A DNA stretch of 64,000 nucleotides from an uncultured Verrucomicrobiae bacterium (GCA_963837955.1 CAWIPH010000002.1:128001-192000), one strand, 5' to 3'; shown: positions 3,602 through 60,180, counted from the first letter of the stretch. Notes: generated from the sequence alone by a model not told the origin. Program-made: numbers and translations.

Positions 3602-3951
3602 GTAGCCTGATGCTCCAGCCTCAGAGGCGTGTTGGTGATTAGTGAGAGGTGATTGGTGGGTGCCTATCGGCCCGATCGGTAGGGCGAAAACCTCGGCGCC
3701 CCGGAAGCGTTTCGATTTTCTTTTGCGTGGATCGCGCCGGGTTTGAGCCGCCCGTTGCATCAATCTGTGTTGCGTCTTTTTCCTTGCGTTCCCCAGTCGG
3801 ACAGGCACGAACGGCTCAAGCCGGTCCGGCTGATACCGTACCAAGCTTTCGCCCTACCGATCAGGCCAATAGGCATACCGTTCACCAATCACTTCTCACC
3901 ATCGTTGAGGCCCTGAGGCTGGAGCATCAGGCTAGGTGGAGATCAGGCTAC
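3602..3951. repeat. REPIN-like element, family A (GTAG-CCTGATGCTCCAGCCTCAGG arms), with a family B element nested inside
   Basis: GTAGCCTGATGCTCCAGCCTCAG at 3602 and its reverse complement at ~3912-3934. The same arms occur at 33724, 49681 and 51873. Confidence 0.85.
3678..3858. repeat. Family B palindromic element (GGTAGGGCGAAA...TTTCGCCCTACC)
   Basis: 12-bp terminal inverted repeats; its reverse complement aligns along its length with 32095..32294. Confidence 0.85.
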
Positions 3952-4014
3952 GCGGAGGTACCGATCGTTCCGTCCTTCTTTTCCGTGGGAGAATGCGGTA
4001 GCATCGGGGCCGTT

Positions 4015-4629
4015 ATGCAGGAACGGTTCCTAGCTACTCGACGCTCGCTGCTGCACCGATTGCGGAATTTAGACGATCGAGCGGGTTGGCAGGAATTTTT
4101 TGAAACCTATTGGCGTCTGATTCATGCAGTCGCCAAGCGGTCTGGATTGGATGAATTCGAAGCGGAAGAAGTGGTCCAAGAAACGGTGATCTCGGTCGCG
4201 CGAAAAATCCCCGAGTTTCGCTATGATCCTAGCATTGGTTCGTTTCGGGGCTGGCTGCTGACCATTGCTCGCTGGCGAATCGCGGATCAATTTAGAAAAC
4301 GAAATACGGAAGAGTCGGCAACTTCCGACCAAATCGCAGACTTAGCGACAGCCAACTTCGAGAGCATTTGGGCGGAGGAATGGGAAAGACATCTCCTCAG
4401 CGGCGCGCTGGCAATCCTGAAACGTAAAGTGAGCTCCGAGCAATTTCAGCTCTTCGAGTGCTATGTGATCAAAGGCTGGTCCCCCCAAAAAGTGGCAGAG
4501 GCACTCGGGGTCCGGATCAACTCGGTTTATCTTGCCAAAAACCGTCTTTCACCCATCCTGCAGGAAATTGTCGCCCGAATCGAAAAGGGGGAGTACCAAC
4601 TTGGGAGTGCCGCAGATACCGGATCATGA
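4015..4629 (+). CDS. ECF sigma-70 factor (Ser/Thr-kinase-associated type)
   Basis: Region 2 'WQEFFETYWRLIHAVAKRSGL..EAEEVVQET..GSFRGWLLTIARWRIADQFRKR' and a region 4 HTH 'SPQKVAEALGVRINSVY'. Start set at ATG 4015; the longer ORF from 3649 runs through repeat DNA. Confidence 0.92.
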   Translation: MQERFLATRRSLLHRLRNLDDRAGWQEFFETYWRLIHAVAKRSGLDEFEAEEVVQETVISVARKIPEFRYDPSIGSFRGWLLTIARWRIADQFRKRNTEESATSDQIADLATANFESIWAEEWERHLLSGALAILKRKVSSEQFQLFECYVIKGWSPQKVAEALGVRINSVYLAKNRLSPILQEIVARIEKGEYQLGSAADTGS

Positions 4630-7490: not shown

Positions 7491-7736
7491 CGAGCTGAAA
7501 ATACGGGATATCAGAACATAGGAGCCGGGATTGGAAGCGGTTCGGCGTCTCGCGCTTGGGTCAAAAGGCTGATACCTGGTTCTCCGCCCCGGAGGGGCCC
7601 GACGAAAGTAGCCCAGCAGTTTATTGCTGGGTAAAGGTTATAAAACGGGTCCGTCCCGCACGGGACGATCGAACCACCGCATGGGCTTGTAAGGTCACAT
7701 TGGAAGCCAATAACTGAACGTTTCGATCGTCCCTGG

Positions 7737-9184
7737 GGGGCGTCGGACTTCGTGATGTTTTTTCCGCTTTTTTTTGGCGGAGGGAGACGGTAAAGGGGAG
7801 GATTGCGATGAGCTTTGAGGTAAGCTGTATTTTCCGTGAAGGGATTGTGGGTAGGTGAGAGCCTTTTTGTTTTCTTAGGAGTTTGTGAGGTTAAAGGTCT
7901 AGCAGATAGTTGCATTGGGTTGAATTTTTGCAAGCGCGTAGATGAAGTGTTGAAAGCCGAACGTGTGTTTGATAAAACCAAAAGCCCTTCAGCTACCGTT
8001 TGGCGCCGAGTTGCAACCACTGTCCGTGGGGTGTTGATGCGTTTTTTGATTAAATAACGCATGTGTGCGCAAGCGTTGCCTATGGCTGTTGCGATGTTTT
8101 GGTCCACTAGCACTGACTTGGATCGGACGGGGAGGATAATAGATTTTGGTGCCAAGGCTCTTTTCCAGCTCATAGGCTTTGGGTCGCTCTCATAGCCACA
8201 ATCGACGACCACTTCCTTTACTGCTCCTAACTCGGGAGCGAGTTGCTCAAGGACTTGGTTCAATAACTCCGCGTCGCCCCCTTTGGCACTGACGGCATTA
8301 GTTACAATCAGGCCTGCACCTTGGATATCGACTCCAATTTGGGCGTTATAGCCAATGACTGTACCTGCCCCTTTACGGTGTAAGATCCCACAGTCTGGAT
8401 CGGTCAAATTCATCCGTACCTCCTTGGCCTGGCTCTGACGACCGCTCTGGGCTAATTGCTCTTTTTCGGCTTGCTGCTGGGCTTCTCGTTGCTTGATGCG
8501 CTCTAGAGCTTCTTTGATGGCCTTACGGCGCTTTTGCCCATCGGCTAACTCCGCTGGCAAGCCTTCAGTCTCTGCTTCGCCCTCTTCAGCTTGATCAGCC
8601 GCTTCCCCTCGTTGGATCAGCTCGCTAATGAGCTCTTCGACTCGAGCCCTTTCTTGCTCTAATTGCTCCCGCGTGCTGAAGCGATGGCGATTGGCGTTGG
8701 CTTCCAGTCGCGTTCCATCCACTGCTAGCTTGCCCACTCGAACCAATCCTAATTCCGCGCCAACAATAACACGCTACGGAAACACTCTCGAAATAACGCT
8801 CCGTTCTCTCGCCGAAACTTCGCGATGGTATCGTGATCCGGATGGGTGTTGCCACACAAGTAACGCACCGAAAGGCTTTCGTAACTGAGTTGTTCGATGC
8901 GCCGGGAAGAAAATACTCCTCGCGCATAAGCGTAAATCAGTAAGCCCAACATCATTCCAGGCGGATACTGCGCACTACCGCTACCCCGCTCATTGGTACA
9001 AGCTAGCCGTAGATCGCATTGATCGACCGCCTCCGCTATCAAGCGCGCCAAATCATCCTTTGCCACCCAATCTCGCAAATCGACCGGCAACAACATCGGC
9101 GTCTGCCGATCAATGACTACATATCGCTCTGGCATCCACCTTTTTACCAGATCTGCTACCCAATTGAAAAGTCCGACAAGCCCC
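7737..9184 (-). mobile_element. IS1182-family insertion sequence, degenerate
   Basis: Imperfect terminal inverted repeats GGGGCGTCGGACTT (7737) and AAGTCCGACAAGCCCC (..9184) enclose a transposase. Possible GG target duplication. Confidence 0.85.
7860..9135 (-). pseudogene. IS1182-family DDE transposase, frameshifted and decayed
   Basis: DUF772-type N-terminus 'YPPGMMLGLLIYAYARGVFSSRRIE..YLCGNTHPDHDTIAKFRR', frameshift at ~8750, then 'AVDGTRLEANA', 'TDPDC', 'GYNAQI', 'VVDCGY'. The C-terminal part is only a remnant, so the 3' coordinate is approximate. Confidence 0.85.
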
Positions 9185-9409
9185 GGCGGGACGGGGCCGT
9201 CTTTATAACCTTTTCCCAGCACTTTGCTGGGCTACTTTCATCCCGCCCCTACGGGGCAGAGAACGAGACACGAGCTTCACTGCATCGATCTTCCCGTCTC
9301 TCAACCTTGCATGCCTTCGCGTCTTTGCGTCTTTGCGTGAGGTTTTAATCCCGCGTCCTCCCAAGAGACAAGAATTCGAACCTGTGTAATACAAAGGGCG
9401 GAGTCCCCT

Positions 9410-11974
9410 GTGGAAATCATTCAGGCCGAACCAAAATCATTTTCCGAGCGGTTACATCCCGTGATCGCGAATTGGTTTCTCGCCAAGTTTCAAAGATTCA
9501 CGCATGCCCAACAGCTGTGCATCCCAGCGATTCTGCAGAAAAGGTCGGTTCTGTTGAGTTCCCCAACCGGAAGCGGGAAAACGCTGGCTGCCTTTCTTGG
9601 AATTATTGATTTCATTCTTCGGGAGGTTGAACAGCCAAATCGCAAGACGAGATCGGGCGTACGGGCAATCTACATCTCGCCGCTGCGGGCTTTGGCTTAC
9701 GATATTCAAAAGAACCTTACCAGCCCGCTCGAAGAGATGGGGCTGCAAACGAGGATCCGGGTTGCACTTCGAACCGGCGATACCAAGCTGGCTGCCCGTC
9801 GAAAAATTCGGCAGACTCCGCCTCACATTCTGCTGATCACGCCCGAAAGCTTGGCGATCATTCTCAGCCAGAAGAGCTATCATGATTTGCTCAGCTCCTG
9901 CAGATACATCGTGGTCGACGAACTTCACGCGATTGCGGAAAACAAACGCGGCATGGACCTCATGCTTTCGCTGGAACGACTACAGGCTATCTGCGCGGAA
10001 CCACTTTGTCGGATCGGCCTATCAGCGACCGTCGCTCCGCTTGAGCGAATGGCCGAATTTCTCGTTGGCCCGAATCGGGATTGTCTGATCGCGGAAGCAC
10101 AGGTCGAGCGGAAGCAGATTGTCGAAGTCTTCTCGCCAATTCGCAAACAGCCTTATCCTCCAGCCGGCTACACCGGGACTCGTTTGCTGGAAGAATTGGC
10201 CAAGCTCGTCCAAAAGCATCAATCGGTGCTGATCTTTTGTAATACTCGCTCCGGCGCGGAAACCATCGGTATTCGGCTCAAGCAGACTCTTCCGGAGCTC
10301 GCTTCCCAAATTGAAACCCACCATTCCTCATTGGATCGGAGCGTACGCCTGTTGGTCGAAGACCGTCTAAAGAATGGGGAGCTTCGTGCGGTGGTCTGTT
10401 CGACCAGCCTGGAAATGGGCATCGATATCGGAGCCATCGATCTCGTGATCATGGTTTCAACGCCAAAAGGGATTTCCCGCACGCTTCAGCGCATCGGCCG
10501 GTCAGGGCATTCCATCCATCAAACCAGCTATGGCGTGTTAGCAGCAACTAACATCAACGATCTGGTGGAATGCACCGTGACGGCGAGTCTGGCCCGGCAA
10601 CGCCGCTTGGACCCGGTGCGAATATTGGAAAAGTGCAACGACGTCATCGCCCAACATATCGTGGGGATGGCTATGTCGGGTCCGATCCATCAAGAGGAAA
10701 TACTGAATGTGCTTCGGCGTTCTTGGCCATGTCGCGATCTCTCCGAAGAAACCTTCGAGCGAATTCTCCGATATCTGGAAGGAGGAGGGAAGGCGTTGGG
10801 TCCGCGGTACAGCACGCTCTTCGGGAAGATCGTGGTGGACGACGGATGGGTGCACGTTCCTTCCCGGGCGGTAGAACGACAGTATTTGCTGAACGTCGGT
10901 ACGATTCCGGCCGAAGGAATGGTGACGGTTTTTCTTGGCCGAAGGAAGCTAGGCCAAGTCGAAGAAGGCTTTATGAAGCGGTTGGCGATCGGCGATCGCT
11001 TTGTGCTGGCAGGCCGAATCGTTCAATTGGTCGAAGCGGGTGTAGTTCACGCCAGAGTCATCCTATCGAAGGGCGAAGGTCCGATCGTCCCAACCTGGAA
11101 TGCCAACAAGATGCCGCTCACGTCTGGCATCGCTCAGGAGGTCGTGCTTCTTCGATCTGAGATCGATCGACGGCTGGAAGAGAATGATCCGAACTTATCC
11201 GAGTGGTTGATCGAAGCCTATGAAATCAGTTCGGCCAACGCGGAAGCCATCATCAATCATTTTCGCGCACAACGCCGTTGCTCGCGCGTACCCGTCACTG
11301 GGATTTTTCTCGTCGAACTATATGTGAGCGAAGAAGGGCTCCTGAACTACTTCTTTCACTCGCTCATCGGCCGCAGCGGAAACGACGCGCTCTCGCGCAT
11401 TATCTCGTTTCGAGTGAAACAGCTGGTTGGCGGAAACGCTATGGTGACAATCGACGACTACGGGTTTTTACTGACCTTGCGTCCATTTCAACGTCTATCG
11501 AAGGCGCAGCTGCAGAGTCTTTTTCGGCCGGAATCGATCTCCGACGATTTAAAGGTTGCCCTCCGTGATTCGGAGTTGGTGCGCTGGCAATTTCGAGGAG
11601 TAGCCCAAACCGGTCTAATGGTTCCTCGCAATCGTCCGGACGTGGAGACAAGAGTCAAACAGATCCATTGGAGTGCAGAAATTCTGTTCCGGGTCCTGCA
11701 AGAGCACGAGCCGAACCATCCGTTATTGGAGGAAGCATACCGGCAAGCGGAATATACATTCTTGGACGCTGAACGAGCCTTCCGATTTGTTGAAGAGGTT
11801 CAAACTTACGACTGGGATGTGCGGGAGGTGCAGACTGTGAGCCCATTCGCATTTGGTATGTATGTCAGCCAGATCAAGGAGGCGATGCTTCACGAGGACC
11901 CCGAGACCGCGATCGAACGGTTGTACCATCGAATGTATGGGCGGGTTGAAGACCCGATAAGAAATGACAAATGA
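9410..11974 (+). CDS. lhr: ATP-dependent SF2 helicase, Lhr-core family
   Basis: Motifs 'SPTGSGKT', 'YISPLRALAYD', 'LLITPESL', 'DELH', 'IGLSAT', 'HHSSL', 'TSLEMGIDIG', 'QRIGRSGH'; 854 aa. Confidence 0.92.
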   Translation: MEIIQAEPKSFSERLHPVIANWFLAKFQRFTHAQQLCIPAILQKRSVLLSSPTGSGKTLAAFLGIIDFILREVEQPNRKTRSGVRAIYISPLRALAYDIQKNLTSPLEEMGLQTRIRVALRTGDTKLAARRKIRQTPPHILLITPESLAIILSQKSYHDLLSSCRYIVVDELHAIAENKRGMDLMLSLERLQAICAEPLCRIGLSATVAPLERMAEFLVGPNRDCLIAEAQVERKQIVEVFSPIRKQPYPPAGYTGTRLLEELAKLVQKHQSVLIFCNTRSGAETIGIRLKQTLPELASQIETHHSSLDRSVRLLVEDRLKNGELRAVVCSTSLEMGIDIGAIDLVIMVSTPKGISRTLQRIGRSGHSIHQTSYGVLAATNINDLVECTVTASLARQRRLDPVRILEKCNDVIAQHIVGMAMSGPIHQEEILNVLRRSWPCRDLSEETFERILRYLEGGGKALGPRYSTLFGKIVVDDGWVHVPSRAVERQYLLNVGTIPAEGMVTVFLGRRKLGQVEEGFMKRLAIGDRFVLAGRIVQLVEAGVVHARVILSKGEGPIVPTWNANKMPLTSGIAQEVVLLRSEIDRRLEENDPNLSEWLIEAYEISSANAEAIINHFRAQRRCSRVPVTGIFLVELYVSEEGLLNYFFHSLIGRSGNDALSRIISFRVKQLVGGNAMVTIDDYGFLLTLRPFQRLSKAQLQSLFRPESISDDLKVALRDSELVRWQFRGVAQTGLMVPRNRPDVETRVKQIHWSAEILFRVLQEHEPNHPLLEEAYRQAEYTFLDAERAFRFVEEVQTYDWDVREVQTVSPFAFGMYVSQIKEAMLHEDPETAIERLYHRMYGRVEDPIRNDK

Positions 11975-11991
11975 CAGATGACAGATGACAA
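11964..11991 (+). repeat. Heptamer tandem repeat ATGACAR x4
   Basis: ATGACAA ATGACAG ATGACAG ATGACAA; contains the lhr stop codon. Confidence 0.8.
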
Positions 11992-12001
11992 ATTTGGAAA
12001 G

Positions 12002-12610
12002 CCTATCCCGGAGGGATTCAATGAAAGTAGCCCAGCAATTTATTGCTGGGAATTAAAGCAAAGACGGTCCCGTCCCGCCAGGGACGATCGAAACTTTCTG
12101 TTATTGGCCCCATTGCGATTTCACGGGCCAATGCGGTGGTCGATCGTCCCTGCGGGACGGACCCGTTTTATAACGTTTACCCAGCCCCGCGGCCGCGCAT
12201 ACGCGTCAACATAAGAATTGGTTTGCCTGCTCCATCGCCGGGAGGGCGCGCGTCCCCGCGCGCCGAGAAAACGATCTCTAACCTGGGGGACGCAATTTAA
12301 CCCTTGGAATACAAACGCGCTTGGGTCCGGCCACAACGGATCGCGGGGACGCGATCCCTCCCCGTGTCGGGTCACGCGGCCGCGCATCCGCGTCAACTTA
12401 AGAATGGTTTGCCTGCTCCATCGCCGGGAGGGCGCGCGTCCCCGCGCGCCGAGAAAACGATCTCTAACCTGGGGGACGCAATTTAACCCTTGGTATACAA
12501 ACGCGCTTGGGTCCGGCCACAAGGGATCGCGGGGACGCGATCCCTCCCCGCGTTGGGTCACGCGGCCGCGGGGCTGGGCTACTTTCGTTGGATCCCTCCC
12601 GCGGGATAGG
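12002..12610. repeat. Family C REPIN/MITE carrying a tandem 2 x ~187 bp insertion
   Basis: Outer inverted arms CCTATCCCG..GAAAGTAGCCCAGC / GCTGGGCTACTTTC..CGGGATAGG; internal CGTCCC..GGGACG hairpins. Confidence 0.85.
12188..12570 (+). repeat. Tandem duplication (187 + 186 bp) bounded by three copies of the palindrome CGCGGCCGCG
   Basis: CGCGGCCGCG at 12188, 12375 and 12561. The units are nearly identical and each holds a GGAG-type REP doublet. Confidence 0.92.
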
Positions 12611-12695: not shown

Positions 12696-13358
12696 TTAGC
12701 TAGTCGCTGGTAATTCCAATGAAATCTGGGTCGCGTCGGTTGCGGAGACCGTCGCGTTGATCCGTGCACCGGTTTGAACCATGGGCGCATTTTCGGGAGC
12801 AATTGCCACCTTGGTATTCAGTTGGTAGGGCGGACGATTGGCTACATGCACTTCCAGCAAAAGGTTCATCAGCTTGAAACGTCCGGCCGGTTCGGCTTCG
12901 ACCGCGTCTAATACTATCGCGGTAGCTTGAGCGGGTTGCCCGGCGAGGCCACCAGGTGCTGCCGGAGACGATACCGGACGCGGTTGGACGTTCAGGCCAG
13001 TCGACTCGACTGCGACCCTTTGCAGATCGTTCGGATCAAAACGGACTTGGATTTTCGAACCTGGCTGAAAGGCAGCAAGCGAAAGACGCGAGACGATCAG
13101 TTTGGTGTTCGCCTCAAAACCGGTACGAGATTGGGGCTGAACGAATAACCGAAGAGCGACTCGCGGATTGTCGTTCACCGTGACTCCAGTGTCGGAAATG
13201 CTGAGAACTTCAGCGACGGCTGACTCTCCGTTACGCAGCAGCGCCTGGCGCTGCCCGCTCTCGCGCATCATCCGAAGGAAGAATCGCGCAACGAAAAAGA
13301 TCACTGTCGCAGTAAGCAAAAGCGGGAGAATGACCGACAAGAGAATGATTATAAGCAT
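12696..13358 (-). CDS. Membrane-anchored hypothetical protein with two similar beta-rich domains (DUF3592-like)
   Basis: N-terminal TM helix, then 'GESAVAEVLSISDTGVTVNDNP..PGSKIQVRFDPND' and a second diverged copy. Confidence 0.7.
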   Translation of the reverse strand: MLIIILLSVILPLLLTATVIFFVARFFLRMMRESGQRQALLRNGESAVAEVLSISDTGVTVNDNPRVALRLFVQPQSRTGFEANTKLIVSRLSLAAFQPGSKIQVRFDPNDLQRVAVESTGLNVQPRPVSSPAAPGGLAGQPAQATAIVLDAVEAEPAGRFKLMNLLLEVHVANRPPYQLNTKVAIAPENAPMVQTGARINATVSATDATQISLELPATS

Positions 13359-13388
13359 AGTAAAATCGGCAGGTGTGGTCTCAGCCTG

Positions 13389-15662
13389 TTACGCGGTGCG
13401 GGTAACAGGGTCAAGTATGGTCGCATGGGAGTCTTTCGGGCCCAGCCGGCTGACCGCCGAATGGAGCGCCTGGATTGCATCGATCAGAGCCTCGAATTGG
13501 GCAACGAGCCACTCGCGTCGCGCTGAGTCTGAGACAGAATTGGCCGAGGAATCAGTGAGGCCGATAGTTTTCTCTCGATGCAATCGTTCTTTCCAACGCT
13601 TCAAATCCGGCGACGGAATTTTTGACTCGTCCGAAGGAATTGCTGCAGCCAGCTTTTCGAGGAAATCCGCCAGGTTCATTCCGAGGTCTCGGAGGTTGTC
13701 AGACGGGTTCCCGTGCTGCGTCTGATTTTCCACGATTGACGAGAGAATCTGAAAAATGTCACGCGCGTCGTTAATCGCGGCCAGAAACGATTCAACTTCA
13801 CCCCCCAGGTGAGTCGGTTCACTCAATACTCGTTGACCGGCGGTCGCAGCGTTCGCTAGTGCCAGACCCGCTTTTCGTTGGAGCGGCCGCCACGTTTTTT
13901 CTCCTTTGTCGTCTCTTGACGGTTCGATCAGGGTAGACCGGAGAAAATTGGCGTTTGCCCTAAGTGCCGCCGCGAGCTGACCAGGTAGTTTTTGCTTTTC
14001 CCAGACCGGGAAAAGTACATACCCGCCGACGACCGCTAAGAATCCGCCGATAAAAGTGTGGAGCACGCGCAAGAGGCTGGTCTCCCAGTCGGCGGAGTGG
14101 CCAACGTCCAGCATGACCATGATCATCGGGGTGAGAGCCAGGGTGTATAAGCCGTAATTAATCGGTCGGACGGAGAGCGCGGCAAAAGCAAGCACGGGCA
14201 GAATCGCAATCAGGATGACTTCTTCTTGAATTGTTAAAGAAAGAGCGGCAGCTATCAATCCCCCTAAAACAGTTCCAGTGACTCGCAGCACAGCCCGCTG
14301 GAGTGTTCCTCCGAAATTGGGTTTCAGGATAAATAAGATCGTTACGGCAATCCAGTATCCACGGGGAAGGTGCAGAACGGTGGCGAGGGTCTGACCCAAT
14401 GCGGCGATCAATCCGAGTCGCAAAGCATGACGGAAACCCTCGGATTCGAACGACAGGTTGCTCCTGATTGGTCTCCAAAAACGAAACGGTTTAATTTCCG
14501 GTTCGGAGCTGACGTCCGAAGGCGTCTCCTTTTCGTCTCGATGCGATTCCAGATTTCCAATTAACTTCCTTGCTTTCCGGATCTGCCTGACAAGGTTTCG
14601 GGCAGTGCTTTCCAGTTCGGGATTTGCAAAGGGTTGTGCCTGTCCGCTTGTTCCATGCACGAACAACGCTTCCAGTCTTTCCTCCGCCTTTTTCAGCGCG
14701 GCGTCCGCTTGGACTGAGTCCAAGGTTCGACCTCGTTTCGGGATGGAGCGGGCCAAGTCGCGAACGATCGCGACGAGATCAGCCGTGAGGGCATGCAATT
14801 CGTTAATGATCTCGGCGCGTTGACTCTCGTCGAGTCGAATAACGAGTTGGCGTAGCGCAACCACAGATCCGCCAATTCTATCGAGTAACTCGATAGAATG
14901 AAGCAGCTGAACGCTTCGAGTACTCGGACCGGCTCGCCGGGCACGGATTGCTCCCCAAATCCTTCGGGTGTTTTCAAGCTCAGTGATGAATGAGTCGAAT
15001 GCCAGGGCGAAGCTAAGGTTATTAACCGGTCTGCCGCCGGATGAGCTGCCCGACCAGAACGCATCCAGAAGTTCAGCAAGTTTCAGATAACTTTTTTGCA
15101 GAGCCTCGAAAACCGGGGACGCGGCTTGGAGAGGCCAAAGAGCCAATGAGAGCAATGTCGCCCAGAGCGCGCCCAGACAGCAGAGGCCGGTACGGATCCA
15201 AAATTCGCCAGGCGTGGACAAGGCAACGCTCACGATAAATGTGGTTGAGCTCATCAACCCTGCTTGGGCCGCCGTATTTCCGACTACCCCAAGAAAACCC
15301 GCCACCGACAGCCAAACAAAGATGCCTATGATGTGTGTGATGCTCGATTGAGATGCCCAGGCGCCAACGACAAAGGCGGCAATGATGGCAAGCGAGGAGA
15401 TGACCATGGAGATGGTTCTCTCCCGATAGGTTCCGCCCGTGTCGCACAGCAAAACCCAAAAAGTGATTAATGCGGTGAGTACGCCCCAAGAAATGTGGTT
15501 TTGAGCCCAGCTGATCACGATCGGCACGAATATCCCGATCGCCATACGCAAGCCTTCTGCGATCTCCGGGCGCGGGGAATCGACGCTCGTGTGCCAGGTA
15601 ACAAACGCGTCCCAGATGCGTCCCAGCCGGCCCGCATTTCGAAGAGACGGAGAAGCAGTCAT
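13389..15662 (-). CDS. FUSC family (YccS/YhfK-like) inner-membrane protein
   Basis: Two TM blocks; 'FRHALRL..GYWIAVTILFILKP..GTLQRAVLRVTGTVLG'. Confidence 0.9.
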   Translation of the reverse strand: MTASPSLRNAGRLGRIWDAFVTWHTSVDSPRPEIAEGLRMAIGIFVPIVISWAQNHISWGVLTALITFWVLLCDTGGTYRERTISMVISSLAIIAAFVVGAWASQSSITHIIGIFVWLSVAGFLGVVGNTAAQAGLMSSTTFIVSVALSTPGEFWIRTGLCCLGALWATLLSLALWPLQAASPVFEALQKSYLKLAELLDAFWSGSSSGGRPVNNLSFALAFDSFITELENTRRIWGAIRARRAGPSTRSVQLLHSIELLDRIGGSVVALRQLVIRLDESQRAEIINELHALTADLVAIVRDLARSIPKRGRTLDSVQADAALKKAEERLEALFVHGTSGQAQPFANPELESTARNLVRQIRKARKLIGNLESHRDEKETPSDVSSEPEIKPFRFWRPIRSNLSFESEGFRHALRLGLIAALGQTLATVLHLPRGYWIAVTILFILKPNFGGTLQRAVLRVTGTVLGGLIAAALSLTIQEEVILIAILPVLAFAALSVRPINYGLYTLALTPMIMVMLDVGHSADWETSLLRVLHTFIGGFLAVVGGYVLFPVWEKQKLPGQLAAALRANANFLRSTLIEPSRDDKGEKTWRPLQRKAGLALANAATAGQRVLSEPTHLGGEVESFLAAINDARDIFQILSSIVENQTQHGNPSDNLRDLGMNLADFLEKLAAAIPSDESKIPSPDLKRWKERLHREKTIGLTDSSANSVSDSARREWLVAQFEALIDAIQALHSAVSRLGPKDSHATILDPVTRTA

Positions 15663-15755
15663 CTCGCGAAGTTTATCAGTGCAATCCTGATCGCGAACAA
15701 TGCCAAAGAGCGGATTGCTGCGGTGGAGAACGGCGAGATTTGTGGAATTCCGGCT

Positions 15756-15791
15756 TTGACAACGGGAGCGGATGGGTTTAGATCGATCTAA
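15756..15791 (+). promoter_or_regulatory. Candidate sigma70 promoter overlapped by a LacI-type operator
   Basis: TTGACA at 15756-15761; perfect 14-bp CG-centred palindrome TTAGATCGATCTAA at 15778-15791 over the expected -10 position, upstream of a LacI gene. Confidence 0.7.
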
Positions 15792-15862
15792 TCAACGATA
15801 GGCTTTTCGCCCGTTTTCGGACGATTTTCCCTAGGTAAAGTTTATTGGATCGATTTTTTTGT

Positions 15863-17331: not shown

Positions 17332-17383
17332 AGATGCACGGACGCGGCGACGCGGTCGGACAAGAGTCAATCCCTCCCAGAAA

Positions 17384-42913: not shown

Positions 42914-42921
42914 GGGCTATT

Positions 42922-49626: not shown

Positions 49627-49680
49627 ACTGATAATCCAAAGACGGAACCACAGATTTGAGATTGGACCGCAGATTGCGCA

Positions 49681-49839
49681 GTAGCCTGATGCTCCAGCCT
49701 CAGGAAGCATATCAGTGATCAGTGATTAGATTAGTGAGAGGTTGGTGGATGCCTATCGACAAATCCACGGCAGAAACCGCCCACCATTCACCAATCACTT
49801 CTCACACGCTGGACCCCTGAGGCTGGAGCATCAGGCTAC
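49681..49839. repeat. Family A REPIN
   Basis: Perfect 24-bp inverted arms GTAGCCTGATGCTCCAGCCTCAGG / CCTGAGGCTGGAGCATCAGGCTAC, flanked on both sides by TGCGCA. Confidence 0.9.
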
Positions 49840-49889
49840 TGCGCAATCTGTGGATCTCCTTTTCTTCGGTCTTTGGGCTACAGATAATT

Positions 49890-50867
49890 ATGCGCGTCGG
49901 AATCGCCGGTACTGGAACAATGGGGGAGGTTCACGCTGCCGCGTGGCGAAGCACGGGCGCTGAGCTGATAGGGTGTACGTCGGGCAATTCGGTCCAGGCC
50001 GAAGCTGTGGCTAAACGTTACCAGATGCGGGTCTTCAGTGATTACGCTGAGCTTCTGGACGCTGTGGAAATAGTGGATATCTGCACCCCGACTCCGCTGC
50101 ACAAACCGATGGTGCTGGAAGCGGCTAGAGCCGGCAAGCATGTGATTTGTGAAAAGCCGATCGCTCTAACGCCGGAGGACGCTCGAACTATGATCCTGGC
50201 ATGTAACGAAGCAGGGGTCCGGTTCTTTGTAGGGATGGTTGTGCGGTTCTTTCCGCAGTATCGACTGGCGAAAGAACTGGTGGCTAACGGCCAGATCGGG
50301 AAGCTGGCTGTTTTGCGGCTCAAACGCGTGGCCTACGTACCGCAAAAGCCTGCGGAGAACTGGTACTTCGATGCAACCCTTTCGGGCGGTATGGTGGTAG
50401 ATCTGATGATCCATGACTTCGACTACGCCCGCTGGTTGGCCGATGAAGTCGAACGCGTCTATGCCCGAAGAAGTCGGTCGGCGAAAGGACCAGCTGAGTA
50501 CGTCCAAGCTATTATCCGCTTTCGGAATGGAGCTATTGGCCTGGTCGAGGGAGGCTGGGCCTATCCGCCAGGGACTTTTCGAACTGGCCTTGATCTCTCG
50601 GGTACCGATGGCCTGATTGAGTGGAACTCGGACCAGCCGTCGCCGGTCCTGACCTTTTTCCCTCCTAAGCCGAAGGACACGGATTCTGTCGGCCTTCCGG
50701 TATCAGGGCTTGCCGAAGACCCATACACTCTGGAGATTCGGCACGCCTATCACGCCATTGTGGGAGGAACGGACTTCGAGGTCACAGCTGAAGACGCCCT
50801 CGAAGCTCTTCGGATCAGTTTGGCGGTCAAAGAATCCTTATCTACCGGTAAACCGGTGTCGCTTTGA
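49890..50867 (+). CDS. Gfo/Idh/MocA family oxidoreductase
   Basis: 'VGIAGTGTMG', 'ICEKPIA', 'GGMVVDLMIHDFD'. Confidence 0.93.
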   Translation: MRVGIAGTGTMGEVHAAAWRSTGAELIGCTSGNSVQAEAVAKRYQMRVFSDYAELLDAVEIVDICTPTPLHKPMVLEAARAGKHVICEKPIALTPEDARTMILACNEAGVRFFVGMVVRFFPQYRLAKELVANGQIGKLAVLRLKRVAYVPQKPAENWYFDATLSGGMVVDLMIHDFDYARWLADEVERVYARRSRSAKGPAEYVQAIIRFRNGAIGLVEGGWAYPPGTFRTGLDLSGTDGLIEWNSDQPSPVLTFFPPKPKDTDSVGLPVSGLAEDPYTLEIRHAYHAIVGGTDFEVTAEDALEALRISLAVKESLSTGKPVSL

Positions 50868-50870
50868 GGT

Positions 50871-51881
50871 ATGGCTATCCGGATCGGCATTCTGAGTTTT
50901 GCACACCTGCATGCGGAGGGTTATCAGGCCAACCTGAGAACCATTCCTGAAGTGGATTTGATAGGATTTTCCCACGAAAATGCAGAGGAAGGCCGTTTCT
51001 TTGCCGCGAAGTACGGGCTCCGCTGGTTTCCCGAACATCGGGAGCTACTGGCCGAAGGGCTCGATGGAGTATTGATCTGTGCGGAGAACGCCCATCACCG
51101 CGAACTGGTCGAGATGGCTGCCGAAGCCAAGTGCCAGATCTTATGTGAGAAGCCCATCGAGACCAATCTTGTCGACGCCATAGCGATGGAGTCGAGTTGC
51201 GCAAAAAACGGGGTACGTTTCATGACGGCGTTCCCCATGCGCTTCGCTCCTTCGGCTCAGGCCGTACGCACCATGATCCAGAACCGGGAGCTTGGGAACG
51301 TACTTGGAGTAAACGGCATCAATCACAGCGAAATTCCGAAAGGTCACCGAGCCTGGTTTGCCAACAAGGCGCTTGCCGGGGGAGGGGCGGTCATGGATCA
51401 CACCGTCCACCTGGTTGACCTCCTTCGCTGGTATTTCGAGGTCGAGGTGGCGGAAGTCTATGCTGAGGTGGACAATCTTTTTTATCCTGACGAGGTCGAG
51501 GTGGACACCGCCGGTCTGATGCTCCTGACGTTTTCCAATGATCTGCAAGCTAGTATCGACTGCAGCTGGAGCCGCCCGACTTCATACCCGCGCTGGGGGC
51601 ATTTGAAGATGGAAGTAATCGGGGAAGAGGGTACAGCCGTGATGGACAGCTTTGCCCAATACCTGACGCTTTATTCGAACGGCGGCCCCAGGAATCCAAG
51701 CTGGATCGGGTTCGGTCCCGATCCAAACCAGGGGATGATTGAGGAATTCGTGGCTAGCATCCGTCAGAATCGCGAGCCGTGCGTGACCTGGAACGATGGT
51801 TACCAAGCTCTGCGGGTAGCCTTAGCGGCTTACGAATCGGCACATTCCAACGAGCCGGTAAGGCTGCTTGCAGTAGACTGA
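50871..51881 (+). CDS. Gfo/Idh/MocA family oxidoreductase
   Basis: 'IGILSFAHLHA', 'LCEKPI', 'GGAVMDHTVHLVD'. Confidence 0.93.
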   Translation: MAIRIGILSFAHLHAEGYQANLRTIPEVDLIGFSHENAEEGRFFAAKYGLRWFPEHRELLAEGLDGVLICAENAHHRELVEMAAEAKCQILCEKPIETNLVDAIAMESSCAKNGVRFMTAFPMRFAPSAQAVRTMIQNRELGNVLGVNGINHSEIPKGHRAWFANKALAGGGAVMDHTVHLVDLLRWYFEVEVAEVYAEVDNLFYPDEVEVDTAGLMLLTFSNDLQASIDCSWSRPTSYPRWGHLKMEVIGEEGTAVMDSFAQYLTLYSNGGPRNPSWIGFGPDPNQGMIEEFVASIRQNREPCVTWNDGYQALRVALAAYESAHSNEPVRLLAVD

Positions 51882-52049
51882 TGCTCCAGCCTCAGGGAGC
51901 GCGTTGGTGATCGGTGGGAGATTTTCTGCCGAGGATTTGCCGATAGGCTCCACCAATCACTTCTCACCAATCACCTCTTATACGCAGCGCCCCCCTGAGC
52001 CAGGAGGATCAGGCTACGGCAGGATCAGGCTACGGCGGGATCAAGCTAC
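51873..52049. repeat. Family A REPIN with a triplicated right end
   Basis: GTAGACTGATGCTCCAGCCTCAGG ... GGATCAGGCTAC x2 + GGATCAAGCTAC. Confidence 0.85.
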
Positions 52050-52076
52050 GATCATTGCGAAAAAGTTGTTGTGCGT

Positions 52077-53787: not shown

Positions 53788-55076
53788 GCGAATTTCAAGA
53801 TAGCAGTGGCGCGCCCCCAGCAGAAATTTCCCAGTTGGCGGAACATCTCTTTCGCCATGAGGCAGGAAAGCTGGTTTCTGTCCTGACAGGAATCTTTGGA
53901 ATTGACCGCCTGCAATTGGCTGAGGATGTGGTCCAAGAAGCATTGGTCCGTGCGTTGAAGACGTGGCCCTATTATGGGATTCCGAAGAACCCCGCCGCGT
54001 GGATCACCCAAACGGCGAAGAACCTCGCGTTAGACTTGATTCGGCGGGAAAAGCTCTTCCGCGAAAAGCAGCCAGAAATTGTGGCAACCATTGAGCAGTG
54101 GCCGGGCGACTCAGTTGCTGGCGATTCGCCTTTATTCGACAGCGAAATAAGAGACGGCCGTCTGCGGTTAATGTTTGCGTGCTGCCATCCGCTTCTCCCG
54201 CCAGAGGCGCAGACGGCGCTGGCCCTTAAGACACTTTGCGGATTCAGCGCCGCCGAAATCGCGAAGGCATTTCTCACGACCGAGGTGGCGATTGCCAAGA
54301 GACTGACGCGAACCAGGCAAAAAATTCGCGAGCTACACATTCCCTTCGAGATTCCGTCCGGCGATGAGTTTTCAGCTCGTCTGGATGGTGTGCTACAAAC
54401 TCTCTATCTGCTTTTCAACGAAGGTTACAAGGCGTCGAGCGGTGACAGCCTCGTCCGGGAGGAACTGTGCTATGAAGCGATTCGTCTGGCGACATTGCTA
54501 GCCGAGCACCCGATGGGCAATCATCCCCGCACTCATGCTCTGGTCGCGCTGATGTTGTTGAACGGAGCGCGACTCTCCGCGCGAGTAGACACGGAAGGAA
54601 ATATTCTTCGTCTCAAGGAGCAGGATCGGTCGAGTTGGAACAAGGAAATGATCGGGCGCGGGATGTTACACTTAGGCCGATCGGCAGCGGGAGAAGAACT
54701 CAGCGGATACCATCTTCAGGCCGGTATTGCCGCCTGCCATTGCATGGCCGACGACTATGAGTCCACGGATTGGCCGAGAATCTTGTCCCTCTACGATCAA
54801 TGGATGGAGACGAATGATTCTCCGATCGTCGCCCTTAATCGTGCCGTGGCTGTTGCGAATGTGGACGGCCCCAAAGCCGGCATTGCGGCAGTCGAGGCAA
54901 TTCGGAACCGAGGTCAGTTAGATTCGTATTACCTGCTTTATGCGGTCCTCGGCGAGTTCGAGGCGCAACTGCATAACTTCCAGACTGCTACCGACAATTT
55001 CCGGAAGGCGCTGCAACTAACTGAGGTGAAATCGGAACAATCTTTTCTATCGAAACGGCTCCGGGATTGTGAATAG
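53784..55076 (+). CDS. ECF sigma factor with C-terminal DUF6596/TPR extension (ECF42 group)
   Basis: 'LAEDVVQEAL..W..GIPKNPAAW', 'LRLMFACCHP', 'EIAKAFL', 'LYLLFNEGY', 'YHLQAGIAACH', 'SPIVALNRAVA'; next to a DGPF protein. Confidence 0.93.
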   Translation: MSEFQDSSGAPPAEISQLAEHLFRHEAGKLVSVLTGIFGIDRLQLAEDVVQEALVRALKTWPYYGIPKNPAAWITQTAKNLALDLIRREKLFREKQPEIVATIEQWPGDSVAGDSPLFDSEIRDGRLRLMFACCHPLLPPEAQTALALKTLCGFSAAEIAKAFLTTEVAIAKRLTRTRQKIRELHIPFEIPSGDEFSARLDGVLQTLYLLFNEGYKASSGDSLVREELCYEAIRLATLLAEHPMGNHPRTHALVALMLLNGARLSARVDTEGNILRLKEQDRSSWNKEMIGRGMLHLGRSAAGEELSGYHLQAGIAACHCMADDYESTDWPRILSLYDQWMETNDSPIVALNRAVAVANVDGPKAGIAAVEAIRNRGQLDSYYLLYAVLGEFEAQLHNFQTATDNFRKALQLTEVKSEQSFLSKRLRDCE

Positions 55077-55555
55077 CAGGATCTGCGCATTCGACCTCCT
55101 CTGAGAACTTCGCGATCTCCTGTTCAAACTGAGGTGAAATCGGAACAATAGTTTCCATCGAAAAGACTACAGGATTGTGAATACCAGGATCTGCGCATTC
55201 AACCTCCTCTGGAATCTTCGTGATCTCCTGTTCAAAATGAGGCGAGATCGGAACAATCGTTTCTATCGAAAAGACTCCGGGATTGTGAATAGCAGGATCT
55301 GCACATTCAACCTCTGGGATCTTCGCGATCTCCTGTTCAAAACGAGGCGAGATCGGAACAATCGTTTCTATCGAAAAGACTACGGGACTGTGAACAGCGG
55401 GATCTGCACATTCGACCTCCTCTGGGATCTTCGCGATCTCCTGTTCAAAATGGGGTGAGATCTGAACAATCGTTTCCATCGAAAAGAATACCGGATTGTG
55501 AATAGAGGGGTTTGGCATTTCAACCTCCTCTGGGATCTTCGTGATCTCCTGTTCA
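55019..55555 (+). repeat. Tandem array, 5 x ~108 bp, containing the 3' end of the ECF42 gene
   Basis: Unit starts at 55019, 55127, 55235, 55340 and 55448 (periods 108, 108, 105, 108, 108). Confidence 0.95.
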
Positions 55556-56743
55556 AAACTCCGTCTTCGCGGTCTCTTTGTGGAGCATCTGATCGAAAAC
55601 AAGCTTTCCGGCGATCCAGACGCGCTGAACCGCGAATCGGTCATCGAAGAGCACTAAATCAGCAGTTTTACCCGACTGAATTGAGCCAAAACGGTCACCG
55701 ATCCCTAGGATCGTCGCCGGGGTGAGAGAGGCCATGCGCACGGCGTCGAATAGCGGGACATCGGCCCGCTGAATTACGGTTCGGACCAAATCAATCATCC
55801 GAGCCAAACTCCCTGCCAAGGCTGATTCATCTTCAAGCATGGCGTAACCGGGACCAACTTTGGACGCCACGCTCCCAAGTTGGAATTTCGTACCTTCCGG
55901 TAAGCCGGCGCCCGCCAACGAATCTGATACCAGGGCGATTCGCTCAGCACCTTTCGCCCGATACGCTAGTTTCAGTAACGTTGGCGATACATGGAATCCG
56001 TCGGCGACGAGTTCGCAGAAAACATTTTCATCTGCTAACGCGAACTCCAATGTACCGGCCTGCCGGAATAGGCCGCGTTTCGAGGCGCTCGACATCGCGT
56101 TGAACAGGTGGGTTACTTTCTTGAGGCCAACAGCAACCGCGGCTTGCATTTCCTGGTCTGAGGCCTCGGTATGACCGGCGCTCATGGTCACCCCGGCCCG
56201 GGTCGCAGCCTCAATGAGATCCAAAGCGCCGGGCAATTCTGGAGCGATGGTCATTTGGGAAATGCTTCGAGCCCGCGATAGAATCCAATCGCGTTCTTTT
56301 GCTCCGGGCGGGCCCATCAATTTCGGATTCTGAGCGCCCGCTTTCGACCGCGCAAGATGCGGTCCCTCGAGATGTACAGGCAATAGACGGGCTTTGGAGC
56401 TCTGCTTGGCGGTTTGCCAGGCGTCTAAGAAAGAATCGAAGTGATCGTAGGTCGTCGTGGCTGCGGTCGGACAAATAGACGTTGTTCCTCCCGAAAGATG
56501 AAAGTCAGCGGCAGTAAGAAACGCTTCGGCAGTGGCATCTAGAAAGTCTGAACCCCTACCTCCGTGAACGTGAAGGTCGATGAAGCCAGGGGCAAGATAA
56601 GACCCATTCGCGTCCATTCGATCCTGCACGTCCGGAAGAGCGCCCTCGCCGATCGTATGTATCAATTCATCAGCGATCAACAGCCAACCCCGATCCAAGA
56701 CTCGATCGGGCAAAATCAATCTCGCGTTATAGATGCATAGCAT
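55553..56743 (-). CDS. nagA: N-acetylglucosamine-6-phosphate deacetylase
   Basis: 'PGFIDLHVHG', 'HLEGP', 'TIAPE', 'GHT', 'THLFNAM', 'DGFHV', 'LAGS'. Confidence 0.93.
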   Translation of the reverse strand: MLCIYNARLILPDRVLDRGWLLIADELIHTIGEGALPDVQDRMDANGSYLAPGFIDLHVHGGRGSDFLDATAEAFLTAADFHLSGGTTSICPTAATTTYDHFDSFLDAWQTAKQSSKARLLPVHLEGPHLARSKAGAQNPKLMGPPGAKERDWILSRARSISQMTIAPELPGALDLIEAATRAGVTMSAGHTEASDQEMQAAVAVGLKKVTHLFNAMSSASKRGLFRQAGTLEFALADENVFCELVADGFHVSPTLLKLAYRAKGAERIALVSDSLAGAGLPEGTKFQLGSVASKVGPGYAMLEDESALAGSLARMIDLVRTVIQRADVPLFDAVRMASLTPATILGIGDRFGSIQSGKTADLVLFDDRFAVQRVWIAGKLVFDQMLHKETAKTEF

Positions 56744-56982: not shown

Positions 56983-59625
56983 CTAAAAGCCGACGATTGA
57001 CGCCTGCCATATCCCAAGCCCGTGCGTCGCTGCTCGTAAGATGCGAGTCGGGCTTTGCAGCTTGAGGTCGAACACCTCAACCTTGGGGAAGCCAGTTCCG
57101 AATTTATGCCAGTGCGCTCCTCCGTCGGTCGAAGCGTAGATCCCGAGATCGGTGCCAGCAAAAAGGTGCAGGGTATTTTGAGGATCAATAACCAAGCCAT
57201 TGACTGACACGTCAGGAAGGCCGTGGCCGGCACGTTTCCAGGTAGGTTGCGTATTTGAGGTAAGTGCGGATACCAGGTTGTTCGTTACCCAGACCTGTTC
57301 ACCTTTAGCTAACCCATATCCGTTGAATGCCACATACACGACATTCTGGTTGGTAGGATCGAGAACGATTCGCGTAATATACCCAGGAGGAAGCTGCCCG
57401 GTGATTTCGACGAGGGCCGAGGAGGCCGTTACGGTCGCGAAAACATTTCCGGTATCGAGTCCGACCACACGAATAGTGTCATTTAACGGGGATATGCCGA
57501 TCGCGCTGATAGGAACGCGGACACCTTGGATTTGCAGGATCGGCGCCTGGCTCACGGCAACCATCGTATTACCGCGGTCTGCCGAACGATAGAGCGTGTC
57601 AGTCCCAAAATAGACTGTATTTGGGCTACCGGGACCCAACGCTATCGGCGCGTAGAAATTGACGCTATCCGTAATCGGGATCCCATTGAATTTGTCAGTG
57701 GTCCCGTCGCAATGAACCGTAGGATCTACGCTACCGCCGTAGATGCCCAAAAGCGACCATTGTCCCTCCTGAGCGCAGGAGGTTTTGAGAACACGACCAA
57801 AGCCGATTAAGTCGTTCGTGATATTAAAATAGGTGTGATACATCGTGACGTTTTCGGTATCCGTCGCGCTTTGATCGATGAGCGCATAGCCGCCATCGCC
57901 GAAATCCGCTCTGAAAAACGTGCCGTCCGGGTTTCGGAGAATCGTGCCGTTATCCTGCGTTCCGCCGATGGTGAAGTCGGCATCACTTGGGTGAACAGCC
58001 AGGCTTTCAAACTGAGTCGCTTGAAATCCTGGTGTATTGATGTCCCGCCACGTTTGACCATTGTCCGTTGAAGCCCAAACGCCACCGTCGTTACCCGTGT
58101 AGACCACGTTTGTGGCAGAAGGCGCTATGGCGATAGCGTGACTGTCGGCGTGCAACCCGCTCACGCTTGGCGTGAAGGTCACCCCTCCATTAGTCGAGTA
58201 TTGAAAGATGCCACCGCCCTTCGGAGGTCCGTGGCCGCTTGCAGTCGGGTCCGAAGGGGTCGGGTTGGGAATAGCTTGTCCATCGATGTACATGTAGCCA
58301 TGACCGGGCGGCCCATCGGGATCGACACCGGTCGAACTCACGGTACCGGCCAGATAAACGTTTTGCGGATTCGTTTGATCAATCGCGATGGCGATGTTGT
58401 AAAAGCCTTGGCCCCCAGCGAACCCATTGCCAGCCGGTAAGACCGTGGGGAACGTGGCTCCGCCGTCGGTTGATTTACGTAAAAGGCCCTGATCTAGTTG
58501 CCCCGAGGCGTACTCGTCCGTCGCGGCGATTACGATCAGAGTCCCGGTACCTGGATCCAGGGCACCAGCCAGCTTCACATTGGTGAGGGTTGGCAAATTC
58601 CCATCCGCTGTGCCGGTAACCGTAGCTCGAGTAAAGACAGGCTTAGGCGCCAGCGCGTTGTTGCTGTAGTAAAGGCCGCCTTGGGGATCGAGGTCACCGC
58701 CTGATCCGGTCACTTGACCAAAAACGCTGCAAACCAAATGTTTCGGATTGCTCGGATCTAAAATCGCACCGGTAACGATCGTGTTTGTGCCAGGGCCAAC
58801 TTTCAGTCTTTCAAACGTGTGGCTCCCGGTCAGAAAATTCGTCGAGCGATAAAGGCCGCGTGGAGGTAGAACTGCACCCACGTTTGCGCCCAATCCACCA
58901 ACACCGGACGAACTGGCGCAGAACACTATGTCGTCGTCTTTTGGATCTACCAGAATCTTGACGATGCTTCGATTCGTGAAGACGTCGTTCCCGAGGCCGT
59001 CCAGCTTGTAAGGCCCTTCCAATCGGGGGTGCGTCGAGTTCGCATTCACTACGACATAAACGCCGACACCGAAGTCGCTGTCGCCCGATAAATTGCCTTC
59101 TCCCGTTCCGATAAAGACCTTGGTGGGATCAACGGGATCTACCGTGATCGACCCAACCGCGAAGTTCTTGGCTCCGACGAAGAGAGATGTCCAAGTCTGA
59201 CCGCCGTCGAACGAACGATAAACACCGCCCTGTGCGCCACCAACGTAGACGATGTTCGGATTTGTAGGATCCACATCAATGGCAGAAACTCGCCCGCTCA
59301 CCGGCACCTCCGTGGGTCCATAAGTCTGGCCATTCGGAATGGGACTTGGACCTAGCGAAAACCACTGTGGGCCGGTTTCGAATAAGCGGGATGACAGATT
59401 CCTCCTCGCGAGCTCCCGGCAGCGCTGGGCGGGTATGGCCGGGTAGATTGTTTAGCGTTGGGGGTTTGGAGAACGGTTTTCTGTGGAGTCGCGCCGGATC
59501 GATGGCACCGGCCGGAAGAGCCAGCCAAAGGCTAGCGACGATGGTTACACTCCCAGAAGGGAGCCCGTAAATTCCGAGAGACTTCGGGAAAAGCGTCTCG
59601 GTGTCGAAGGTGTGGAATAATTCAT
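56983..59625 (-). CDS. Secreted BNR/Asp-box beta-propeller protein (sortilin/GH74-like fold); N-terminus disrupted by two apparent frameshifts
   Basis: Asp-boxes 'RSFDGGQTW', 'STDGGATF', 'STNGGVTF', 'STDNGQTW', 'STDGGAHW', and 'GGTQDNG', 'ATHGLGIW' in ORF 56983..59307. ATG 59625 is in the same frame, but a signal-peptide-like segment (TIVASLWLALPAGA) lies in a shifted frame. Confidence 0.8.
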
Positions 59626-59863
59626 AGACTAGACGGATCTGGACGAAGGCCAATCACGGTGCTCCGTTCCAGAAGTGGCAAATGTGGTATCAGGGTCCAA
59701 AGCCGGCTGTCTATCTAAACATTTATGGTAATTATAGTCGATATAGACAAGGCCTTTCTATCAAGTCACCGATTTCTTAGTTAGGTGTCCCGACCGAAGA
59801 GTCTAAGGATGGATCCACTGCCGGCCTTCGATCGAGGCTCTTGTGGGTGCGCCGATCGCCTGC

Positions 59864-60180
59864 GAGTCAAGATAAGAGGAAGGATATGCCCGAGGGGAGT
59901 GGGCCCGGCTTGTCCGCCGTAGCCCGGAGGTCGCGCGACGGCGAGGCGAAGGAGGAAGGGACTCAGTGAAAGTAGCCCAGCACGAAGTGCTGGGAAATAA
60001 TGCAAAAAGAGACGTCCGTCCCGCCAGAGGGACGATAGAAATGTTTTGGCTCCTGGACATCTCGTATGCCCTCACCCGCGTAAGCAGCCGTCGATCGTCC
60101 CATTCCTCCTTCGGCATCCTGACTATGGAGGACAGGCCGGGACGAGTCTTTGCGCAACCCTCTAAGCCCTATGTTGACGC
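59864..60180. mobile_element. Composite MITE-like element, second copy, internally deleted
   Basis: GAGTCAAGATAAG...CCTATGTTGACGC termini; the interior matches 16964..17331 but lacks one arm segment between two GTCCC motifs. Confidence 0.8.

Follow-up and report, generated by a model that had tools for sequence, protein, structure and literature searches.

What brings small repeats to lie inside one another in the gaps between bacterial genes? The question is raised by a 64,000-nucleotide stretch (G000:C2:128001-192000, hereafter the window) of the 5.62-Mb genome of an uncultured Verrucomicrobiae bacterium, a soil organism whose closest named homologues, for one gene, belong to Chthoniobacterales and other Verrucomicrobiota, and whose gene gaps hold small repeats nested within each other. 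An initial annotation of the window described palindromic families A to D, an enclosing shell, short tandem repeats and a mini-element (M), and attributed them to one hierarchy driven by RAYTs (REP-associated tyrosine transposases), enzymes of the HUH class with a Y1 domain that act on repetitive extragenic palindromes (REPs). All of the families and nests it named were found in place, and the families proved to be genome-wide. Regions built from 16-mers seen at least six times amount to 1205 pieces and 210 kb of the 5.62 Mb, or 17% of intergenic DNA by a crude estimate of the intergenic fraction, and de novo extension over the whole genome yielded more than 100 repeat modules. As the annotation had noted, no RAYT gene lies in the window; the eight Y1 transposase matches are all elsewhere in the genome.

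Although the nesting is real, no single RAYT-driven hierarchy underlies it: the shell has the end of an IS4-family insertion sequence, the tandem repeats are ends of cassettes encoding GxxExxY or four-helix-bundle proteins, and M goes with a GIY-YIG gene and not with an HUH gene, so that at least five pairings of enzyme and end coexist in one genome. We give a probability of about 0.6 to the reading that the nests are gene-less ends of unrelated cassettes, in which the HUH families act mostly as hosts, IS1182, IS4 and an IS4-ended MITE (miniature inverted-repeat transposable element) occupy their small hairpins, and M, entering hairpin apices without target duplication, was probably mobilised by a small free-standing GIY-YIG nuclease and not by a transposase of known kind. 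REPs and their paired forms, REPINs, with RAYT (TnpA-REP) genes (PMC3116915, PMC3337134, PMC3733652, PMC6006769), insertion sequences that target REPs, IS4 MITEs and the Ssn/SRM systems are known layers; M is apparently an undescribed one.

Cassette ends and their partner genes

Family C comprises 72 paired elements genome-wide, and its ends directly bound a single-copy Y1 gene (L001, 157 aa) with the motifs DHAH, WQ and YIKNQAEHH. The last of these fits the subclass 1.2 motif Y-x-x-x-Q-x-x-HH, an assignment made by eye against Table 1 of PMC6006769. The C element corresponds to the L001 cassette with the gene swapped for a filler of about 55 bp, and contains four small hairpins. Two further repeat families flank the Y1 genes L002 and L003, so that three genes with subclass 1.2 motifs are each bounded by dispersed multi-hairpin ends; each also has a large family of gene-less derivatives. 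In the available part of PMC6006769, subclass 1.2 is listed without REPs. In contrast to that REP/RAYT literature, C and its two sister families flank genes of the IS200-like subclass 1.2 type and, with about 70 gene-less derivatives of 190 bp, indicate that such genes have big non-autonomous families. At L003:700-2530 the Y1 cassette itself lies between two copies of one palindromic-ended repeat, of about 440 bp, from another family.

The same arms bear on the Rfam family Acido-Lenti-1 (RF01687), tabulated in PMC2864571 and termed "of unknown function" in the accessible text of 10.64898/2026.10.21.760802. It matches the arm by L002 (L002:1925-1969) with 37.0 bits, equal to the gathering score, and the C arms beside L001 (1300-1346 and 1993-2038) with 30.1 and 28.4 bits, below that score; at the gathering score no Rfam family, Acido-Lenti-1 included, matched the copies in the window. 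Because the matched arms bound IS200-like TnpA-Y1 genes, these alignments suggest that Acido-Lenti-1 represents a transposon end, here that of TnpA-Y1 cassettes, and this Rfam orphan would then look like the end of IS200-like subclass 1.2 families.

Families A, B and D3 (a D variant) consist of GT(A/G)G- or GGAG-headed hairpin arms arranged as inverted doublets, with many intergenic copies, among them 57 intact A doublets and 60 B left ends. Arms of A flank the Y1 gene L006 (NF047646, 66 bits, under the cut-off of 80), D3 ends flank the RAYT gene L007 (NF047646, 94 bits), and B-type ends flank RAYT-like genes in three relatives (L347 in G001, L368 in G004 and L358 in G011). The annotation's view that several non-autonomous families depend on partner genes elsewhere was thus borne out, the partners of A, B, C and the D variant being RAYT-type. 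A, B and D3 resemble REPINs in their GTAG/GGAG-headed inverted doublets, variable spacers and own single-copy Y1 gene (for B in the relatives only), and differ from the focus of the REPIN literature, as far as the sources cited above could be consulted, in that the RAYT families here are mainly hosts. PMC3733652 does report a few REP families that are regularly inserted within other palindromes.

The HUH families make poor guests. The share of doublets enclosed by inverted flanks of 10 nt or more is 2/60 for A, 6/60 for B, 12/61 for C and 0/12 for D, where random arm pairs would lead one to expect 0.2, 2.1, 3.0 and 0.1 doublets, and several of the doublets with inverted flanks have near-identical arms, as arm-to-arm copying would give. 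The preference for hairpins that the annotation ascribed to the repeat families is strong in some guests, namely M, IS1182, IS4 and the shell MITE; the RAYT families are not the main nesters. The B doublet at 3678-3857 (plus strand) does lie within an A doublet (3602-3935; GTAG-headed, REPIN-like arms 3602-3624 and 3913-3935, of the type seen at L006), and is the sole such case among the 57 intact A doublets. The A element, which includes a stem of 7-bp repeats, is symmetric around B: one and the same half of A stands on either side of B, as inverted copies, an arrangement that a plain insertion would not produce. Long A is itself composite, since its inner 7-bp stem is of the type that flanks the four-helix-bundle gene L331.

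Each short tandem repeat type examined is arranged in inverted orientation around a GxxExxY gene (clearly so at L321, with related ends at L320 and L322-L324) or a four-helix-bundle gene (on both sides of L326-L329 and L331, on one side of L330 and not at L332). At L320-L324 and L326-L331 each gene has its own 7-9-bp repeat type, and the types also occur gene-less across the genome. No description of tandem-repeat ends on such genes was found in the literature searched, which included few subscription journals and no supplements.

Among the precise nesters are DDE elements. The IS1182-family element of the window (7737-9184, minus strand) splits a C element (7587-9256), a gene-less derivative of the TnpA-Y1 cassette, as the annotation had it: the insertion sits in the loop of C's third small hairpin. 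Its transposase is frameshifted, so that NF033551 matches two split open reading frames (E about 1e-32 each) and both fall under the cut-off because of the split, and the element is 22 bp shorter than the other eight full copies. All nine full copies lie in loops of C-type small hairpins, at three different C hairpins, with terminal inverted repeats (TIRs) present; the genome has 379 such small hairpins, 337 of them near a C arm. No IS1182 DNA was found in 24 relatives at E 1e-20. In close relatives' contigs, depth over the IS1182 body is low, which we did not use as evidence. Both copies of a second IS4-family element occupy the L002 family's hairpin, and the one in L290 shows an 11-bp duplication. 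Insertion of such elements into REPs and hairpins is already published (PMC1525189; for IS1272/TnSha1 of the IS1182 family, PMC4923244), and the specific use of repeat hairpins by IS1182-family and IS4-family elements is alike in the accessible parts of those reports; unlike there, the targets are hairpins of TnpA-Y1 ends. Deletions are reported for IS1272 (PMC4923244), as far as that source was available, whereas IS1182 here gives a 4-bp duplication. At four IS1182 copies (C1 37452, C1 62960, C2 3043706 and C2 3065952) the two sides of the target duplication differ at one or two positions. At L296, an IS4-family element of G001, the two flanks are inverted and not direct copies, which, as with the differing IS1182 duplications, could reflect conversion, flank exchange or assembly polishing.

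The shell is the end of an IS4-family MITE. Its end is the TIR of L296 (NF033592, 213 bits) and of L297 in G011 (210 bits), and its opening bases are like those of IS231/ISH8-type ends. The annotation had also recorded D-bearing units within C, and these are two tandem 186-bp IS4-ended MITE units with D-type hairpins (12188-12570, plus strand; left end the TIR of L296 and L297) carried by the right small hairpin of a C element (12007-12600). Of 18 copies of this unit genome-wide, with flanks classed by hand, nine are framed by nine different, site-unique 10-bp direct repeats centred in small GC hairpins, eight are ambiguous or partial and one lacks a right side; one of the duplications lies inside an M loop. 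Forms with C between shell ends carry the TIR at both ends, whereas the right end of the 186-bp unit is not a TIR. C does lie between shell ends at 16961-17330 (decayed ends and linkers around C at 16997-17290) and at 59861-60185, and the second of these (59851-60195, with a one-armed C) has a direct repeat matching at 9 of 10 positions on its two sides (59851/60186). The further claim that C had inserted into the shell is not shown, because no empty shell, with the two linkers joined without C, was found in the genome, and the shell may instead have captured C. The whole block 16961-17330 is missing from the orthologous gap in G001, G002 and G003 (gap 16900-17370 empty). The shell resembles the IS231/ISH8 group of the IS4 family and its cargo forms, as the available text of PMC2266710 describes them, in the start of its end, TIR identity and duplications of about 10 bp. 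Unlike those forms, its cargo consists of the repeat elements C and D, the right end of the 186-bp unit is unlike a TIR and no cognate transposase was found in the genome.

The mini-element M

The most precise nester, M, sits in the loops of other repeats. In a refined search, 161 copies of it, 30-64 nt long, were recovered from the genome; the first pattern had given 152 matches, against 1, 1 and 0 in three shuffles. M is composed of a four-base head, a 6-bp stem, a 4x4 purine-rich internal loop and a variable inner stem-loop. Position 5 of the stem is A-T in 92 copies and C-G in 69, with no mismatch, although the search pattern in part imposed this regularity. For the inner closing pair, 123 of the 161 have C-G and 30 have T-A. 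About 15 host sites account for nearly all copies (154/161): the arms of A, the outer and inner hairpins of C, B, both ends of D, D3, two further Y1 families, a number of tandem repeats, the hairpin by the GIY-YIG gene discussed below, and M itself. At these sites empty forms are commoner than filled ones. M lies without target duplication, and the junctions are chiefly AG^TC (47), GG^AG (42), GA^AG (28) and GG^GA (12). When M is removed and its flanks are rejoined, the resulting 24-mer is present elsewhere for 95 of the 161 copies (120 if the one extra base seen in D is allowed), compared with 14% at random intergenic positions. M occupies a hairpin apex in 130/161 cases, compared with 29% for intergenic and 168/498 for repeated intergenic positions.

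The copies that the annotation placed in A, C and D were all found. In A, one arm carries M at its apex (33737-33779, minus strand). In C, a 33-nt copy at 17007-17039 (plus strand) occupies the apex of the left outer hairpin and is mirrored, with one stem change, at 17254-17286 (minus strand) at the apex of the right outer hairpin, the two lying in 98-nt inverted arms; the one-armed C carries an outer hairpin copy at 59909-59956 (plus) and an inner one at 60104-60136 (minus). D holds M at 36524-36585 (plus), 36612-36667 (minus) and 42818-42874 (plus). The copies at 17254 and 60104 are degenerate and were read by eye. Among the close relatives' contigs, one that spans 13291-17053 falls short by 31 nt and has 35 gap letters; absence of the 33-nt M would agree with this, but the observation was not used as evidence.

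M middles are specific to the host, and G001, G003, G004 and G019 share some of the variants; many nested copies are thus amplified composites and not separate insertions. On a tree of C elements built after removal of the inner M and without pairs longer than 260 bp, the 9 of 60 filled elements require nine changes, against a shuffled mean of 8.6, with at least three changes forced by starred branches. An identical 33-nt inner M occurs in two distant C clades. Three near-identical C copies (C2 2605584, 2659603 and 4440391) have one outer flank in common, and one of them has two M and an interior that is inverted with respect to that flank.

M is not restricted to this genome. It was found in 16 of 43 genomes of the family, in 15 stretches from a viral collection and in at least 123 metagenome stretches, where GA^AG is the commonest of 117 distinct junctions (26) and many of the hosts are, by eye, other REP-like hairpins, SRM-like ones included. 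No Rfam family matched M at E up to 0.5 in the 15 loci searched, and neither M nor GIY-YIG cassettes with M hairpins behind tRNA genes are described in the literature consulted. Two known types of repeat were considered as identities for M and set aside. The consensus of NTS/SRM repeats did not fit M in a comparison by eye. Cyanobacterial small dispersed repeats (SDRs), the Nostoc SDR1-8 of Elhai et al. 2008, are reportedly very small and structured, lie inside tandem repeats, mini-transposons and themselves, and share with M its small size, structure and nesting; they are said to measure 21-27 nt, with a fold given for SDR4/5/6 and no partner gene named, and M, at 30-64 nt and with its GIY-YIG association, would differ from them.

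GIY-YIG genes and rival explanations

The genome has one small GIY-YIG frame (89 aa, PF01541 47.7 bits, L021:1471-1740), which lies behind a tRNA-Tyr gene among hairpins of M architecture, one of which carries M. With a pattern that kept the architecture, allowed any 6-bp stem and reached 400 bp from the gene, M-shaped hairpins were found at 64 of 105 small GIY-YIG loci (57/79 from GTDB, the latter under 19 named phylum labels, and 7/26 from the family). The pattern matched 104 times in 79 kb near the genes, 5 times in 72 kb farther off and 0.4 times in shuffles. Forty-five of the 60 loci scanned among the 79, counted by hand, have a same-strand tRNA or tmRNA gene ending within about 330 bp upstream, and the exact M stem stands just upstream of the GIY-YIG genes in L179, where it overlaps the tRNA 3' end, and in L138. 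The protein has no NCBIfam match, and its best structure matches, to Slx1, are weak (E 0.003 and above).

These features recall the Ssn GIY-YIG single-stranded DNA nucleases with NTS/SRM hairpins, for which the authors themselves raise a mobile-element origin (PMC11893778). In both systems, as far as that report was accessible, a small single-domain GIY-YIG gene is flanked by dispersed hairpin repeats in many phyla. M differs in sequence and fold and has no CGTC-type head; it is located behind tRNA genes, and the other repeats into which it inserts include SRM-like ones.

A mechanism may be proposed along these lines. From established biology, the IS4 and IS1182 transposases would choose palindromic or hairpin targets, of which the HUH and tandem-repeat families would supply hundreds. 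For M, nuclease-assisted insertion followed by conversion is the likely route: the GIY-YIG protein would bind single-stranded DNA in the M fold, as SsnA binds its own hairpin, and nick near an exposed purine-rich loop, and repair would copy M in. Once one host copy had M, gene conversion among host copies and between palindrome arms could spread the variant, and M would also be carried passively whenever its host was copied. Conversion and passive copying together would yield host-specific middles, mirror-image double occupancy and the scatter of filled copies on the host tree. A broader proposal is offered tentatively, as somewhat short of an even chance: that across phyla M is a hyperparasite, with a DNA hairpin of 30-64 nt set in motion by the cassette of an 80-90-residue GIY-YIG nuclease that lies behind tRNA genes, and with base-precise, duplication-free entry into the loops of other selfish hairpins and subsequent homing among their copies. 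Were the GIY-YIG link true, the Ssn idea would extend to a second class of hairpin, very small nested repeats hitherto without a mobility enzyme would gain a mechanism, and transposition or homing by a minimal GIY-YIG protein would pick its targets by DNA structure; a structure-guided system for nicking and insertion in single-stranded DNA, of fewer than 100 residues, could then serve as a tool. Each of the pairings of enzyme and end is testable with short oligonucleotides.

A number of observations weigh against the cassette-end and GIY-YIG reading. The frame in the genome has no ATG, GTG or TTG start by the domain and may use CTG or be a pseudogene, and the hairpins beside it have 6-bp stems that differ from that of M. 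Co-occurrence in the 43 family genomes is loose (M and a homologue in 11, M only in 5, gene only in 5, neither in 22), G011 holds 21 M copies and no GIY-YIG homologue at 93% completeness, and only three metagenome loci with M have a homologue within 600 bp. The established action of GIY-YIG nucleases is to hydrolyse DNA, which they are not known to rejoin, and no transposition intermediate was seen. The 161 copies, gathered in about 15 host sites, are not independent; the host tree cannot tell gain of M from loss and may mislead, as the host elements are mosaic. Among the other pairings, neither a cognate IS4 transposase for the shell nor a partner gene for B was found in the genome itself, the B partners being confined to relatives, none was found for the main D type, and the IS1182 duplication is perfect in only 4 of 9 copies.

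Four other explanations were weighed. The one we take most seriously, while judging it unlikely, is that some rare, ancient event brought M into each host family a single time, and that it has since multiplied only as a passenger when its host was copied, with no present targeting. Fixed composites, the outcome that the annotation had set against its own model, do exist in part: M-in-A and M-in-D recur with host-specific middles, some common to other species of the genus, and in 47 D copies M goes together with the extra base that precedes it. Yet the host sites number about 15 with M at the apex of each, filled C elements do not cluster on the host tree, two precise M set one member of the near-identical trio apart, an identical 33-nt inner M sits in two distant C clades, and unrelated hosts in metagenomes follow the same junction rule. 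Slightly less probable is the annotation's own model, in which RAYT/HUH transposases move every family by way of existing hairpins and M would be a peel-and-paste element read through its GTAG/GAAG. Entry without target duplication at a fixed junction, a GTAG-like tetranucleotide, eight HUH genes in the genome and the modest enrichment of inverted flanks in A, B and C would all suit it, but none of 37 Y1 loci (30 in relatives, 7 in this genome) is bounded by M on both sides, the lone M match lying within an arm of another family, M-shaped hairpins track GIY-YIG genes, and the shell and the tandem repeats have partners that are not HUH.

Nesting might also reflect selection, with wide insertion and survival only in existing junk. 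That repeats make up 17% of intergenic DNA and that different families refill the same gaps across species agrees with this, and as guests A, B, C and D are in keeping with it. It does not predict that M should sit at the apex to the base (130/161, with 168/498 for other positions in repeated DNA), or that nine of nine IS1182 copies should lie in one hairpin type, and we consider it improbable as a general account. Least probable, by a hair, is movement of M through an RNA intermediate, with tRNA read-through giving the transcript, a route reportedly proposed for cyanobacterial small dispersed repeats. M-shaped hairpins overlap tRNA or tmRNA 3' ends at many GIY-YIG loci and the structure of M covaries, as such a route would have it, against which stand the lack of target duplication or tail and of any link to a reverse transcriptase, none having been searched for.

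Remaining repeats of the window

Gaps orthologous to those of the window, compared in same-genus relatives of about 80% identity, are either empty or filled by other families. The A element at 49681-49839 is flanked on both sides by inverted remnants of 9-bp repeats, in agreement with the annotated nesting of A in another palindrome; it is centred in this decayed shell (49645-49853), and the tandem-repeat shell at 49650 holds D with two M in G003, while the orthologous gap (49627-49890) is empty in G004. The gap at 3600 is not strictly empty in G004, which has another short GTAG hairpin there, and in G001 it corresponds to a 3-kb array (G001:C2:496890-500037) with another Y1 family and a broken IS4 copy whose ends match the shell.

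The A doublet that carries M extends over 33725-33922, and another, with its right end tandemly duplicated, over 51873-52050. Family B has a free doublet at 32097-32295 (minus strand) and D3 a doublet of the type that flanks L007 at 22490-22640. D is present in an empty form without M (18455-18507, plus strand), where the orthologous gap is taken up in G001 by an element of 7-bp repeats and in G002 by a C element, with M at one position (42802-42915, plus strand) and with M at both ends (36507-36682), the last within remnants of 6-bp repeats where G003 has only a 7-bp repeat. A short pair of GTAG-headed REPs at 27561-27615 is conserved in G001 and decayed in G004.

Tandem repeats stand at 9315-9346 (8-bp, of the type flanking the GxxExxY gene L321), at 11962-11993 (one of the genome-wide 7-bp types) and, as an inverted pair of 8-9-bp repeat ends resembling a gene-less cassette of the GxxExxY type, at 32821-33046. 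Between the two C elements at 7587-12600 lies an Lhr helicase gene (9410-11974); in neither G001 nor G004 does the segment lie at the orthologous position, and it may therefore have been relocated. At 55022-55558, five copies of a 108-bp unit overlap minus-strand open reading frames, and part of the unit resembles the end beside the GxxExxY gene L320.

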